Below, in pieces: positions 43,585-51,199 of a DNA stretch of 64,000 bases (position 1 is its first letter; every line of letters begins with the position of its first letter). Position numbers and translations under genes: made by a program. The notes under the pieces are model-generated. The model was not told where the DNA came from, did not search any database, and saw only the letters and a list, made by a program, of their open reading frames with translations. This DNA comes from Terrimesophilobacter sp. (GTDB lineage Bacteria; Actinomycetota; Actinomycetes; Actinomycetales; Microbacteriaceae), in contig JBDTBD010000003.1 in assembly GCA_039924285.1 (NCBI GenBank), positions 17,179 to 81,178 on the forward strand. Reading direction: 5' to 3'.

Positions 43585-44478
43585 TCAACCGACCGCCGGC
43601 CCCGCATGAAAAAACTCATGGGCCGCTGCCCTATGCTGCACGGTGATCTGCTCGAACAGGGCAAGGCTGTCGAAGCCGGGCCAGTTGTCCGGCAGCGCGG
43701 CCGGCGGCAGGCCCGGGTCAAGGTAGGGCAGGATGCGCCACTGATCGAGCGCACGGATGAAGCGTCGAAATGATCCGCCGGCATCCTGCAGGTCGGTGCC
43801 GTGCGGTTCTGTATCGTGCGGGTCTGTACCGTGCCGGTCTGTGTCGTGCGGGTCGACGCCGCCGGTCGGAATGCCCCGCTGAGACTCCAGAAAATTGCGG
43901 TGCAGCCCGGCGAGACGCTCGAGATCCCACCAGCGGCGGGCGGCCTCTGCCAGACTGTGCGCGGTACGGGGTGTGTCGGTGAGAAAGATGGTCACCTGTT
44001 CCCCCAGGTGCAGCTCGGTCACGATCTGCTCGACCTCATCCGTGAGGAACGCCGGGCAGATCCACAGCCCGGTAGACACGGTGCCGCAGCCGATCCAGCC
44101 GAGACGCTGCCGAAGCAGGTGGCGCACGCCCCGCTGCGTCTCAGGGATCGAAAACGACAGCAGGCACCACTGGTCGCCGTCGGCCATCTGGCGAAAGGTG
44201 AAGATGCGGCGGTCGCCGCTCTCCAGCATCGGGACCGCCTCCGGATTCAGCGCGTATCCGGCCGCGGCCTGCCGCGTCTCGGGGAGGAGCAGGCCCTTCG
44301 CCTTCACCCGGGAGATGGCAGTGCGGGTGTGCGGGGCACTGACCCCCACCGCATTCATCAGGCGGATCAGTTCTGCCACCGAAATCCATCCGCCCAGGCG
44401 GCGCAGGCCCACGCCCACGATCGTGCGCAGCAGCGAGGTGGCGCTGCCGGAGCGGGCGTCGACGTCGTCAAGGATCAC
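43585..44478 (-). CDS. PaaX family transcriptional regulator
   Basis: RTAISRVK.KG, W.LLSFSIPE..R..RH.LR..L.W.G.G, WWDL, WR.LPYLDPGLP. Confidence 0.92.
   Translation of the reverse strand: MILDDVDARSGSATSLLRTIVGVGLRRLGGWISVAELIRLMNAVGVSAPHTRTAISRVKAKGLLLPETRQAAAGYALNPEAVPMLESGDRRIFTFRQMADGDQWCLLSFSIPETQRGVRHLLRQRLGWIGCGTVSTGLWICPAFLTDEVEQIVTELHLGEQVTIFLTDTPRTAHSLAEAARRWWDLERLAGLHRNFLESQRGIPTGGVDPHDTDRHGTDPHDTEPHGTDLQDAGGSFRRFIRALDQWRILPYLDPGLPPAALPDNWPGFDSLALFEQITVQHRAAAHEFFHAGPAVG
43791..43850. repeat. 4 x 15-bp in-frame tandem repeat (H[DG]T[DE]x) inside PaaX
   Basis: ggtcggtgccgtgcg/gttctgtatcgtgcg/ggtctgtaccgtgcc/ggtctgtgtcgtgcg. Confidence 0.85.
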
Positions 44479-44518
44479 CCGCGGCGCTTTGGCTCTGGCC
44501 CGGGGTGGCGTAGACCGG

Positions 44519-45757
44519 TCACGACGGCAGCCGTTCCAGTTCCTCCCGGATGGCCTCCACCCCGAGCCACAGCTCTTCGAAGCTGGTCGACAGCGGCGAC
44601 AGGCCCAGCCGGATGCCGTTCGGGGTGCGGAAGTCGGGGATGATGCCGCGCTGCCACAGTGCCGCGTTCACCTGGCGGAACCGGTCGTGGGTGATGGTGA
44701 TGTGGCTGCCGCGGCGGGCGGCGTCCCGCGGGGAGGCGAGGCCGACCCCCAGCGGAGCAAGCACCGCGTCGGTCAGCGCGATCGCGTATTCGGTCATCCG
44801 CACCGACTTCTCGCGCACCGCGACAACTCCCACGCCGCCGATCAGCTCGAGCATGTCGCGCATCGGCAGCATGCCGATCACCGGTGGGGTGCCACTGATG
44901 AACCGGCGAAGGCCCGGGTGCGGCTGGTAATCAGGACCCATGGTGAACGGTTCGCTGCTGCCCATCCACCCCCAGATGGGCTGCTGGAAGGTGTCGTGGT
45001 GCTCGGCGCGCACGTAGCCGAAGGCAGGGGCGCCGGGTCCGCCGTTCAGATATTTGTAGGTGCAGCCCGCCGCCAAATCCACGCCCCACGCGTCCAGTTC
45101 GGTGGGCACGACGCCCACCGAGTGGCACAGGTCGAACAGCACGAGCGCGCCGGCCCGGTGGGCCGCCGCGGTGACGGCTGGCGCATCGGCCAGGTAGCCG
45201 GATCGGTAGTCCACGTGGCTGAGCACCACCAGGGCGGTGTCCGGCCCGCAGGCGGCAGCAACCTGCTCGGCGGTGACGCCGGCATCCGGCTCCGGGGTGA
45301 TCCAGATGAGGGTCGCGCCGCGCTCGGCGGCGATGCCCTGCAGCAAGAACCGATCGGTGGGAAAGTTGCCGGTGTCCACGACGATTTGGTGCCGGCCCGG
45401 GCGGGCGTCCAGTGCGGCGCGCATCAGCTTGTAGAGGATGACGGTAGTGGAGTCACCGATGAAGGTTTGCCCGGCGGCCGCGCCGAGCGTCACCTGGCCC
45501 AGGGTGTCGCCGAGGGTGAGCGGCAGGTCGTACCATTCCTCGTCCCAGCCCCGGCTCAGCCGGGCGCCCCAGGCCTGGGTGGCGAAGGACGCGAGACGTT
45601 CGGCGCTGGCGGCCAGCGGGCGGCCGAGCGAGTTCCCGTCGAGGTAGGCGACGACATCCGCCTGGGCGACGAACAATTCGCGGTGGGCGCGCAGCGGGTC
45701 GGTCGCATCGAGGGCGCGGGCTGCATCCAGGCTGGTGTCGGTCAGCGGGTCGGTCAT
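44519..45757 (-). CDS. kynU: Kynureninase
   Basis: YLDGNSLG, DSTT, NFPTD, DLCHSVG, GCTYKYLNGGPG, GWMG, RGSH, DFR.P..IR. Confidence 0.93.
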   Translation of the reverse strand: MTDPLTDTSLDAARALDATDPLRAHRELFVAQADVVAYLDGNSLGRPLAASAERLASFATQAWGARLSRGWDEEWYDLPLTLGDTLGQVTLGAAAGQTFIGDSTTVILYKLMRAALDARPGRHQIVVDTGNFPTDRFLLQGIAAERGATLIWITPEPDAGVTAEQVAAACGPDTALVVLSHVDYRSGYLADAPAVTAAAHRAGALVLFDLCHSVGVVPTELDAWGVDLAAGCTYKYLNGGPGAPAFGYVRAEHHDTFQQPIWGWMGSSEPFTMGPDYQPHPGLRRFISGTPPVIGMLPMRDMLELIGGVGVVAVREKSVRMTEYAIALTDAVLAPLGVGLASPRDAARRGSHITITHDRFRQVNAALWQRGIIPDFRTPNGIRLGLSPLSTSFEELWLGVEAIREELERLPS

Positions 45758-46779
45758 CTGGGTCGCTCCTTAGATTCGGGTGAAACAGCTGCTGCACTGA
45801 GCACGGATGCACCAGCGAGCCAGGCGGGGACATCCGGCAGTGCAACTCCGGCGATAAAGCTGACGGCGGGGCCGAATCCACCGGTGCGCGTTCCTACGAT
45901 GCTGCGCACGACGGCGTCGCTGTCGAGGCCGGCGTCTTGCAGGGCGCGCAGTTCGCGGAGGTTGACACCAAGCGGCAGTGGGCCGTTACCGAGGTCGGTG
46001 CCATAGACAACGGTGCCGCCGAACCGGTGGAACCGGCGCAGGTTGTCCTGGGCGGTGGCGAAGTCCGCGCCGTACTTTCCCCAGCCGTGGATATCGAGGG
46101 TGCTGATCCACTGCTGCGAGCCGGCCATCGACTTTACGAGGTCGTCATCAAGCCGTTCTGTCCACGGCGTGTGAGCGAGCCGATCGACACCGGCCGCGAA
46201 GGCTCGTTCCGCTTGGCCGATGCCTTCGGCGTGCGCGACCACGGTGGTGCCCGCCGTGTGGGCATGGGAGACCAGGGCGGCAAGGGTGCTGTCGTCGAGC
46301 ACCGGGCCGGCATCGGAGTTGAGGGTGATCTTGATGAAGCTGGCGCCGACGGCCAGTTGCGCGTCGATGGCGGCCGTTGCAGTCTCGGGCGAAGACACCT
46401 CGGCCACGCACTGCGACGGCGCCCACGCCCGATCAGTCGGATACCCGCCCGGCGCGGTGAGGAACGCTCCGGCGAAGCGCACCGACGGCAGAGCCGGGTT
46501 GTCGGGCCAGCCGCGGGCGATGTCGGGATTCCAGCCGAGGTCGTCGACTGCGGCGATGCCACCAGCGAGAAGCGCAGCGCCGTCGATGAGTCCCAGGTGG
46601 ACGTGCGCGTCGGTGAGGGGAGGAAGCACGGTGCCAGCCAGGTGTGCGCTCGGGGCGGGGTCGGCATCCGTGGCGATGCGAATGCTGCCACCGTCGACGA
46701 CGAGCGCGGTCGAGCCGAGCCACCGGCCGGCCCAGCACTCGTCGACCGAAAACACGGAATCAATCACCGGTGATTCCAC
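45754..46779 (-). CDS. Metal-dependent amidohydrolase superfamily protein (candidate kynurenine formamidase)
   Basis: LTDAHVHL (HxH), FIKI, VAHAEG, LAHTP, YGTDLG; abuts kynA and overlaps kynU. Confidence 0.8.
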   Translation of the reverse strand: MESPVIDSVFSVDECWAGRWLGSTALVVDGGSIRIATDADPAPSAHLAGTVLPPLTDAHVHLGLIDGAALLAGGIAAVDDLGWNPDIARGWPDNPALPSVRFAGAFLTAPGGYPTDRAWAPSQCVAEVSSPETATAAIDAQLAVGASFIKITLNSDAGPVLDDSTLAALVSHAHTAGTTVVAHAEGIGQAERAFAAGVDRLAHTPWTERLDDDLVKSMAGSQQWISTLDIHGWGKYGADFATAQDNLRRFHRFGGTVVYGTDLGNGPLPLGVNLRELRALQDAGLDSDAVVRSIVGTRTGGFGPAVSFIAGVALPDVPAWLAGASVLSAAAVSPESKERPR

Positions 46780-47634
46780 TCACCGAATTTCGGTCCGAAC
46801 AGCATACAACTCGGGGAAAAACGTGAGGTCGAGCGCCTTCTGCAAGAAGCTGACCCCGCTCGATCCGCCGGTGCCCCGCTTCATGCCGATGATGCGCATC
46901 ACCGTCTTGACGTGTCGGAACCGCCACAGTTGGAAGTTGTCTTCGAGGTCGACGAATTCCTCGCAGGTCTCATAGGCGAGCCAGTGCTGGTCGGGGTGCT
47001 CGTAGATTTCCCGGAAGGTGTCCACCAACTCGGGGTGGAACGCGTAACCCTGGGTGACATCCCGTTCCAGCACGGATGCGGGAACGTCGAATCCGTGCCG
47101 CGCGAGGTAGCGCAGGAACTCGTCGTACACGCTCGGCTCACCGAGCAACGTGGACAGCAGTTCGTGCGCCTCCGGGTTCGACTCGAACACCTTCAACATG
47201 CCGGCGTTCTTGTTGCCGAGCAGAAACTCGACGGCGCGGTATTGGTAGGACTGGAATCCGGAGGCGTTGCCCAGATAGCCACGGAACTGCGCATACTCGC
47301 TCGGCGTCAACGTCGCGAGCACGGACCACTGTTCGGTGAGTTGGCGCTGAATGTGTTTGACCCGAGCGATGCGTTTGAGAGCAACCTGCAGTTCGTCATT
47401 CGCGATCAGATCTCGCGCCGAGAGCAGCTCATGCCGCATGAGCTTCAACCACAGTTCGCTGGTCTGGTGCTGGATGATGAACAGCATCTCGTCGTGGTGC
47501 ACAGGATCGCTCACCGGAACCTGCGCCGCGAGTAGCTTGTCCAGGTGCAGGTAGGAGCCGTAGCTCATCCGGTCTTTGAAATCGGTGACGATGTCGGCTT
47601 CGATCGCTCGTTCACCGGTAGAAGAAGTTGGCAT
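46780..47634 (-). CDS. kynA: Tryptophan 2,3-dioxygenase
   Basis: YGSYL.LD.LL, HDEMLFIIQHQTSELW, ASGFQS.QYR, WRFRH...V.RIIG.K.GTGGSSG. Confidence 0.96.
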   Translation of the reverse strand: MPTSSTGERAIEADIVTDFKDRMSYGSYLHLDKLLAAQVPVSDPVHHDEMLFIIQHQTSELWLKLMRHELLSARDLIANDELQVALKRIARVKHIQRQLTEQWSVLATLTPSEYAQFRGYLGNASGFQSYQYRAVEFLLGNKNAGMLKVFESNPEAHELLSTLLGEPSVYDEFLRYLARHGFDVPASVLERDVTQGYAFHPELVDTFREIYEHPDQHWLAYETCEEFVDLEDNFQLWRFRHVKTVMRIIGMKRGTGGSSGVSFLQKALDLTFFPELYAVRTEIR

Positions 47635-47700: not shown

Positions 47701-47782
47701 CCCGTTTCACGGAGTTTCTGTGCCCGAGGGCCGTGGTTGCCGAGGCACAGGGACTTCAGCGACAGGAACTCCGTGAAATGGG
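47701..47782. repeat. 82-bp palindromic intergenic element, copy 3
   Basis: CCCGTTTCACGGAGTT...AACTCCGTGAAATGGG. Confidence 0.85.
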
Positions 47783-50263: not shown

Positions 50264-51199
50264 ATGCTGCGCCCGACCCGAGAAACCCTGTGCATCCGCG
50301 CCCTCATCGGGCTGCTCGCGGCCGGCGTCATCCTCGTTCTCGGCGCCTGCGCATCCGGTCCGCCACCGGCACCAACGAAGGCGGTCGCGGTGCCCGCACA
50401 GCAGCACGCGCTCGTGTATCCGGACGTCACAACCGTGAGCAACATCGGCTACGGGACAGCCGACGGGCAGCCGCTGCTCCTCGATGTGTGCCTGCCCTCG
50501 GATGCCGCCGAGACGTCACGCCCGGCACTCATCGGCGTGCACGGAGGCAGCTGGCGCAGCGGGGACAAGGCCGACCAGAGCTGGATGGGGATCTGCCGCT
50601 GGCTGGCATCCGAGGGCTACGTGACGGTGTCGGTGAACTACCGGCTCGCGCCGACCCACACCTTCCCGTCCCAGATCGTGGATGTGCGGCAGGCGGTGCG
50701 CTGGCTTCGCGACCCAGACCAGGTAAGCCGGTACCACGTCGATCCCGCGCGGATCGGCGCGATAGGCGGGTCCGCCGGCGGCAACCTCGTCGCGCTGCTG
50801 GGCACCGAGGGGTCCGGCGCGCTCGATGCGGGCACCCGGGTCGCCGCGGTGGTCGACCTCAGCGGCCCGGTGGATCTGACCGCGGACGGCGCCGCGACAT
50901 CCGGTTTTGAGCAAACCCAGTTGTCGTACCTCGGTTGCGCCGACTACTCGAACTGCCCCGCCGCACCGGAGGCGTCGCCGACCTACCAGGTGGATGCATC
51001 CGACCCACCATTCTTCATCGCGCACTCCACCCACGAGTTCATCCCGCTGGCCCAGGCCACGCAGTTCGTGGCGGCGCTGCGAGCGCACGGCGTGGCGACC
51101 ACCTTTGTCACCACACCCGGTACGAAGCACGCGACCGCGATGCTGAATGACGCCCTGCGCGCCCAGATCACGGAATTCTTCCGCAGCACCCTTGGGTAG
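50264..51199 (+). CDS. Alpha/beta hydrolase (HSL/BD-FAE-like esterase), probable lipoprotein
   Basis: Lipobox LGAC, HGGSW, VNYRLAP, GGSAGG nucleophile elbow, C-terminal H. Confidence 0.88.
   Translation: MLRPTRETLCIRALIGLLAAGVILVLGACASGPPPAPTKAVAVPAQQHALVYPDVTTVSNIGYGTADGQPLLLDVCLPSDAAETSRPALIGVHGGSWRSGDKADQSWMGICRWLASEGYVTVSVNYRLAPTHTFPSQIVDVRQAVRWLRDPDQVSRYHVDPARIGAIGGSAGGNLVALLGTEGSGALDAGTRVAAVVDLSGPVDLTADGAATSGFEQTQLSYLGCADYSNCPAAPEASPTYQVDASDPPFFIAHSTHEFIPLAQATQFVAALRAHGVATTFVTTPGTKHATAMLNDALRAQITEFFRSTLG

Follow-up and report, generated by a model that had tools for sequence, protein, structure and literature searches.

Four co-oriented genes on the minus strand occupy positions 43585–47634 of a 64,000-nucleotide stretch of Terrimesophilobacter sp. 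DNA (contig JBDTBD010000003.1, positions 17,179–81,178; this whole stretch is the window), which comes from a metagenome-assembled genome (MAG) of 2.19 Mb that is 72% complete. The first gene, kynA (46780–47634), encodes a tryptophan 2,3-dioxygenase (TDO) of 284 aa, with scores of 218.6 bits on PF03301 and 405.8 bits on the TIGR03036 equivalog model (cut-off 390.7). It is followed by a gene (45754–46779) for a 341-aa binuclear-metal TIM-barrel amidohydrolase, hereafter AH, which is a candidate N-formylkynurenine formamidase by its metal ligands, its AlphaFold2 model with the Foldseek matches, and its linkage to kynA. Next, kynU (44519–45757) encodes a kynureninase of 412 aa (254 bits on TIGR01814, cut-off 246.4) with KYNU_C and Aminotran_5 domains, and the last gene of the unit (43585–44478) encodes a PaaX-like transcriptional regulator of 297 aa, whose PaaX, PaaX_M and PaaX_C Pfam domains all scored above cut-off.

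The kynA/AH junction is 0 bp, as the kynA stop codon TGA is directly followed by the GTG start of AH, with an alternative GTG start 12 nt further on. AH and kynU overlap by 4 bp, the AH stop codon and the kynU ATG together reading ATGA, and an AAGGAG ribosome-binding site for kynU, found by direct sequence reading, is placed within the 3′ end of the AH gene (45766–45771, minus strand), 8 nt upstream of the kynU start. A first-pass annotation, made from the sequence of the window, had described TDO and kynureninase as flanking a 341-aa amidohydrolase with 0-bp and 4-bp-overlap junctions, and the open reading frames and junctions match this description; the PaaX-like gene inside the same interval was absent from it.

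AH had no Pfam match at E ≤ 0.01, and the profile searches specifically returned no match to PF04199, TIGR03035, the alpha/beta-hydrolase Pfam families or PF04909. Its best NCBIfam match was NF051886, a Caulobacter Xaa-Pro dipeptidase model, at 49.8 bits vs. a cut-off of 500. In an alignment of 48 orthologues sharing 50–83% identity, H59, H61, K150, H183, H203 and D262 were invariant, and the same six residues were invariant in 24 more distant sequences as well. They correspond to the HxH, K, H, H and D metal ligands picked out in the first-pass annotation, and constitute the classical set of subtype-I binuclear amidohydrolases, that is, HxH, a bridging (carboxylated) Lys, two His and an Asp. 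Further, Y113, P114, W119, W224, D229, H231, N265, R275 and E276 were invariant in the 48-orthologue alignment, and W224, H231-G232 and G266 were confined to the clade of kyn-linked AHs. Close relatives among the matches came from Parafrigoribacterium, Terrimesophilobacter and other Microbacteriaceae. At E ≤ 1e-30, the AH family comprised 110 clusters in a 50%-identity representative library; the named source records label its members just "amidohydrolase family protein" or "imidazolonepropionase-like", and the names of the ESM Atlas matches were generic only.

The AlphaFold2 model of AH, built with the 48-orthologue alignment, reached a mean predicted local distance difference test score (pLDDT) of 93.4 and a predicted template modelling score (pTM) of 0.91. 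When it was compared with the PDB by Foldseek, every top match was an amidohydrolase, with E-values down to 2.8e-20, so that by its model AH is a predicted (beta/alpha)8-barrel member of the subtype-I binuclear amidohydrolase superfamily. The top matches were cog1228 enzymes (TM-score 0.73–0.77, 18–22% identity), including the Xaa-hydrophobic dipeptidase 2qs8, the Arg/Lys carboxypeptidase Cc2672 (3mtw), ochratoxin amidohydrolases and prolidases. The sequence searches of the PDB agreed with Foldseek, as cog1228 proteins were again the best matches, with an E-value of 7e-9 for the single sequence and 1e-16 with a profile. AH shares with these enzymes (Cc2672, 3mtw; the Sgx dipeptidases and prolidases 2qs8, 3n2c and 3mkv; the ochratoxinases 4c5y and 8ihq) the fold, the subtype-I binuclear site and a small beta-sandwich accessory domain, but it is 60–90 residues shorter, and its genomic context is the kynurenine pathway rather than peptide or mycotoxin hydrolysis.

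In an alternative explanation, AH is a cog1228-type carboxypeptidase or N-acyl-amino-acid hydrolase that supplies the pathway with tryptophan or kynurenine cut from peptides or from N-acyl conjugates, and non-specific hydrolases or slow spontaneous hydrolysis take care of deformylation. Such a role would suit the ranking of Cc2672, the Xaa-Pro and Xaa-hydrophobic dipeptidases and the ochratoxinases as the best matches in both sequence and fold. At the sequence level, however, AH falls outside the carboxypeptidase/prolidase/ochratoxinase group, given its 18–22% identity and the NCBIfam score of 49.8 vs. 500 bits. In cog1228 carboxypeptidases, the metal ligand His287 together with His191 (of a GGH motif) and His289 (of an HxH motif), numbered as in the Aspergillus niger ochratoxinase AnOTA, hold the C-terminal carboxylate of the substrate (PMC11342369). 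In HMMER alignments, as distinct from a superposition, the AH positions aligned to His191 and His289 are Tyr113 (GGH to GGY, within GGYP) and Glu/Gln185 (HxH to HxE/Q). Since both carboxylate-binding histidines are replaced, carboxypeptidase-type specificity is therefore not expected for AH, and its substrate specificity is read from these alignments as changed relative to that of the cog1228 carboxypeptidases. Together with the genomic distribution described below, this makes the peptidase explanation a quite unlikely one.

Another branch of the superfamily with a tie to the kynurenine pathway is that of the aminocarboxymuconate-semialdehyde decarboxylase (ACMSD)-type enzymes (PF04909). An ACMSD-like decarboxylase was rejected as an identity for AH: unlike those enzymes, AH has no PF04909 match and keeps the bridging Lys (K150) and the second metal site, and the cluster ends its pathway genes at kynU without a gene for 3-hydroxyanthranilate 3,4-dioxygenase (3-HAO), none of which was found in the 72%-complete MAG assembly either.

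The distribution of AH within the family was evaluated in 151 Microbacteriaceae genomes, which were searched with AH, TIGR03036, TIGR01814, TIGR03035 and an alpha/beta hydrolase found in kyn clusters, the coordinates being tallied by script. AH was present in 44 genomes and a high-scoring kynA (377–407 bits on TIGR03036) in 43, with 37 genomes carrying both. AH adjoined kynA in 36 genomes, kynU in 34 and both in 29. A two-gene kynA-AH unit was seen in seven genomes, in six of which kynU lay elsewhere; in the remaining one kynU was not found, and a contig end was near. No in-frame stop was observed in AH in any of the 37 genomes that also have kynA; such stops were seen only in two kynA-less genomes. 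In one of them (G094, L019), just the last ∼41 residues of kynA are left upstream of an AH with an in-frame TAG, indicating a decaying operon, and in the other (G039, L021), an AH with an in-frame TGA has no kyn neighbours.

The eukaryotic kynurenine formamidase is an alpha/beta hydrolase, and among bacteria the kyn and actinomycin clusters of Streptomyces use an Afmid-type alpha/beta-hydrolase formamidase, with S. coelicolor using the esterase-like SCO3644 of the same alpha/beta type. In Microbacteriaceae, the six of the 43 kynA genomes that lack AH all carried an alpha/beta hydrolase of about 250 aa, its oxyanion motif being HGG[YF]W and its nucleophile elbow GHSAGG, and its gene adjoined kynU or kynA in five of the six. 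It forms the third gene of kynA-kynU clusters at L004:6047-6802, L005:3232-3993, L008:6039-6719 and L007:6056-6788, the last of these (genome G025) being frameshifted. The protein falls in the hormone-sensitive-lipase (HSL) group and gave a weak but near-full-length match (E 2e-4) to the Drosophila kynurenine formamidase 4e11. AH and this hydrolase were found together in none of the 151 genomes, and none of the 43 high-scoring kynA genomes lacked both. Mutual exclusivity of AH with other formamidases in kyn operons, which had been proposed as a check on its function, was thus borne out, with 37 genomes for AH vs. six for the alpha/beta hydrolase and no overlap. One-for-one alternation with an Afmid-like hydrolase would be unexpected for a peptidase that feeds TDO, which argues against the carboxypeptidase alternative.

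KynB, the bacterial kynurenine formamidase, has a cyclase-like fold of which structures are known, and differs from the eukaryotic enzyme (PMC4243253). It scored above cut-off in only one of the 151 genomes (G015), where it lies beside kynU, an alanine dehydrogenase gene and an amino-acid permease gene; a similar arrangement with a lower KynB score was seen in G085, and both genomes lack AH. The distribution of AH, kynA and the alpha/beta hydrolase matches what non-orthologous gene displacement in one pathway slot would be expected to produce.

In four genomes without a TDO or indoleamine 2,3-dioxygenase (IDO) match, AH was kept as a pair with kynU (G004, G041, G074 and G132; L015–L018), and in one such genome the alpha/beta hydrolase was kept with kynU in the same way (G129:C2:200055-201961), the IDO search having been run without a positive control. 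Three of the AH-kynU pairs have a methyltransferase gene with them. Continued pairing with kynU where TDO and IDO are absent would be surprising in a peptidase, which further weakens the carboxypeptidase alternative. AH and the alpha/beta hydrolase thus behave alike, which would fit a role for each of them directly before kynureninase, and the pairs may serve the salvage of exogenous or oxidatively formed N-formylkynurenine.

To cover AH beyond the family, a one-genome-per-species scan was made that gave 80 loci, with the kyn neighbours detected by tblastn. The order kynA-AH-kynU was found in 50 of the 80 loci and the full trio in any order in 56, the six rearranged loci (kynA-kynU-AH) all being from Micromonosporaceae (Actinoplanes, Couchioplanes); the trio also occurred in Promicromonosporaceae, Cellulomonadaceae and Pseudonocardiaceae. 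AH was accompanied by kynU only in six loci, including those of Microbacterium, Curtobacterium, Actinopolyspora and Winogradskya. In one locus, from Nocardia grenadensis (L072:2869-6445), a TDO-like gene (379 aa), AH and a cytochrome P450 gene lie in a row, with no kynU nearby, divergent from a LIV-type amino-acid ABC transporter; this row may be a kynurenine-modifying module. Eight loci, from uncultured Actinomycetota (L083, L089, L093, L094, L097–L099) and one Planctomycetaceae MAG (L084), showed uvrB, AH and a molybdopterin oxidoreductase gene together with a convergent gene for a KYNU_C-domain protein; the molybdoenzyme is sulfite-oxidase-like, and the KYNU_C protein is about 29% identical to KynU. 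In the Planctomycetaceae MAG, AH and the KYNU-like gene abut. No kyn gene was present in the remaining nine loci, in seven of which AH lies at a contig end.

In a maximum-likelihood tree, from which an artefactual long-branch group formed by eight rows with over-extended open reading frames was ignored, the kyn-linked AHs made one clade with a support of 99, the Nocardia sequence was its sister, and the uvrB-linked group came next. The AH of Sphaerisporangium cinnabarinum ATCC 31213 (L034) was nearly identical to the AHs of Cellulosimicrobium (L039, L044), with branch lengths of 0.05–0.11, which suggests either that the gene was transferred recently or that the assembly is contaminated or mislabelled.

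The rearranged order kynA-kynU-AH in Micromonosporaceae and the existence of AH-kynU pairs without kynA would be compatible with a swap of the two steps, in which kynureninase cleaves N-formylkynurenine to N-formylanthranilate and AH then deformylates this product, still as an aryl-formamidase but acting on another substrate in the cell. Such a swap is unlikely, as the tightest partner of AH is kynA rather than kynU: the two adjoin in 36 of the 37 Microbacteriaceae genomes with both, while kynU lies elsewhere in six and was not found in one of those genomes, and Nocardia has a TDO-AH arrangement with no kynU nearby.

Because of the conserved kyn clustering and the complementary distribution with the known formamidase types, AH is read here as the formyl-removing enzyme of the kyn operon, an N-formylkynurenine formamidase on a third fold, and a probability of roughly 0.7 is assigned to this reading, which draws on gene identity, metal ligands, predicted fold, linkage and complementarity. 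As part of the same reading, kynA, AH, kynU and the paaX-like gene would probably form a single translationally coupled unit that converts tryptophan into anthranilate and alanine. The first-pass annotation had likewise proposed that AH fills the missing formamidase step with a third fold, and this proposal gains support from the exclusivity, the linkage and the rarity of KynB, the substrate and the activity being inferred.

Hydrolysis by a metal-bridged hydroxide is the generic chemistry of subtype-I amidohydrolases. In the proposed pathway, KynA would open the indole ring to give N-formylkynurenine, which AH would bind in a pocket whose lining is made up of invariant aromatic and polar residues, with Y113, W224, H231 and R275 as the predicted substrate shell. 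Its carboxylated-lysine-bridged binuclear centre (HxH, K, H, H, D) would activate water, and the aryl formamide would be hydrolysed by the hydroxide bridged between the two metals to yield kynurenine and formate, after which KynU would cleave kynurenine to anthranilate and alanine. The mid-position of AH in kynA-AH-kynU matches this order of reaction steps.

AH would thus be a (beta/alpha)8-barrel enzyme that stands in, as a non-orthologous replacement, for both the cyclase-fold KynB and the alpha/beta-hydrolase Afmid type. With KynB (PF04199, TIGR03035), it has in common the proposed reaction, the position in the operon, between kynA and kynU or next to them, and a binuclear metal centre that activates water, but the two are unrelated in sequence and fold, as AH is a barrel with HxH, carboxy-Lys, H, H and D ligands and lacks the cyclase HxGTHxDxPxH domain. 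The Afmid/Bna7-type enzymes, of which the Drosophila kynurenine formamidase (PDB 4e11) is an example, occupy the same slot, and a related hydrolase stands in Microbacteriaceae kynA-kynU clusters exactly where AH is absent. In contrast to the TIM barrel of AH, they are serine hydrolases of an unrelated fold that rely on a Ser-Asp-His triad and lack a metal centre. Our literature search found no TIM-barrel or amidohydrolase-type kynurenine formamidase, which is weak evidence, as most subscription journals lay outside its coverage. Both the operon and the reaction are known, and the new part is the analogous enzyme family.

Several observations weigh against the formamidase reading. The nearest characterised relatives of AH are carboxypeptidases and dipeptidases, not deformylases, and Tyr113 is common to a wider subfamily of ∼340-aa proteins that includes non-kyn members, so it is not function-specific. 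The association of AH with kynA gave a Fisher p of 6e-22, a value that overstates the number of independent events because the genomes are related. Some weak cyclase-family match was present in 27 of the 43 kynA genomes. Further, seven members of the family with small genomes (1.2–1.7 Mb) carry a divergent kynU-kynA pair without AH, the alpha/beta hydrolase or KynB (G009, G079 and G011, at L010, L011 and L012, and G038, G111, G123 and G130); therefore, a dedicated clustered formamidase is not obligatory. That some genomes of the family run kynU-kynA without a recognisable formamidase is also a point in favour of the carboxypeptidase alternative. A patatin-like gene lies between kynU and kynA in G011 alone; it was set aside as a fourth formamidase type, the congeneric G111 being without it.

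The last of these observations concerns the source genome itself, where two cyclase-family paralogues have the metal motif HxGTHxDxxxH intact. One, of 261 aa, has genes for a thiamine pyrophosphate (TPP)-dependent enzyme and a thioesterase on its two sides, with a second PaaX-like regulator gene opposite; the other, of 271 aa, lies between a CoA-transferase gene and a PrpD-like gene. Both are on contigs other than that of the window and are the only two PF04199 genes of the assembly. The first-pass annotation had noted that the window holds no cyclase-family kynB, and the profile search extended this, finding no PF04199 gene anywhere on the window's contig. The genome-wide check for kynB that it had called for came out in two parts: no canonical KynB was found in the MAG, but two cyclase-family paralogues are present. 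These are unlikely to be KynB, as each scored only 32–33 bits vs. the TIGR03035 equivalog cut-off of 223.05, and their gene contexts are unrelated.

The other hydrolase considered was a BD-FAE/HSL-type alpha/beta-hydrolase esterase of 311 aa encoded on the plus strand (50264–51199), 2.6 kb upstream of kynA and beyond a helicase gene. It resembles acetyl-xylan esterases and lipases. When compared with the alpha/beta hydrolase of the kyn clusters, it was 33% identical over 129 aa, and the whole-genome search with that hydrolase gave no match; considered as the Afmid-type formamidase, it was rejected as an orthologue of the kyn-cluster hydrolase.

These genes bear on the explanation that the real formamidase is one of them, a cyclase paralogue or the esterase, and that AH has another role that only accompanies tryptophan catabolism. 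The two intact metal motifs and the position of an HSL-type esterase 2.6 kb from kynA speak for it. The cyclase scores and contexts speak against it, as does the esterase's place on the other strand past the helicase gene, its likeness to acetyl-xylan esterases and lipases and its lack of orthology. Further, when ten other genomes with AH and kynA were checked for PF04199 at E ≤ 0.01, eight of the ten, all 96–100% complete, had no cyclase-family gene. This explanation is accordingly considered very unlikely.

Generalizing from the window to the family, the ∼340-aa binuclear TIM-barrel amidohydrolase clade would add a third structural class to the kynurenine formamidases, one that predominates in Microbacteriaceae, is widespread in other Actinomycetota and works with kynureninase also in dioxygenase-less genomes; this broader claim is favoured, with somewhat less confidence than the function of AH itself. 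In pathway reconstructions of bacterial tryptophan catabolism, the kynurenine formamidase step is the one most often reported missing, and if true, the assignment of AH would close this annotation gap for much of Actinomycetota. It would also present a clear case of convergence, with three unrelated folds (cyclase, alpha/beta hydrolase and TIM barrel) alternating in one operon slot within one bacterial family, and it would make AH a new specificity branch beside the cog1228 carboxypeptidases and ochratoxinases, which would help in studying what determines the substrate. Whether oxidised tryptophan is salvaged becomes a testable question in view of the hydrolase-kynureninase pairs that have no dioxygenase; under the same assignment, these pairs would point to the salvage of N-formylkynurenine arising from oxidative or photochemical tryptophan damage, or taken up from outside.

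As for the boundaries of the unit, a strong hairpin was predicted by RNA folding on the minus strand at 47701–47782, within the 168 bp that separate kynA from the DEAD-box helicase gene upstream of it. The hairpin spans 82 nt with a folding energy of −40.7 kcal/mol (z = −4.28), and none of 200 shuffled sequences folded equally well. It may be a terminator (without a U-tract) or a boundary of the kyn unit, or else a regulatory element. A scan for sigma-70 promoters found none.

Among the surveyed genomes, the kyn cluster of G040 (L009) is the closest to that of the window, with identities of 79% for KynA, 75% for KynU and 64% for PaaX. It has no AH between kynA and kynU and continues with an amino-acid permease gene and a second kynureninase-like gene; the AH of this genome lies on another contig (L020).

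The kyn regulators known so far belong to the Lrp/AsnC type. The PaaX-like protein of the window scored only 98.7 bits on TIGR02277 vs. a cut-off of 264.55, in contrast to its three PaaX Pfam domains above cut-off, so that it is a member of the PaaX family and not the phenylacetate PaaX itself. In many of the 80 related loci, a PaaX-like homologue was found downstream of kynU. The protein of the window probably regulates the kyn unit. The second PaaX-like gene of the same MAG (L001:2460-3233) is divergent from the thioesterase-cyclase-TPP-enzyme operon.

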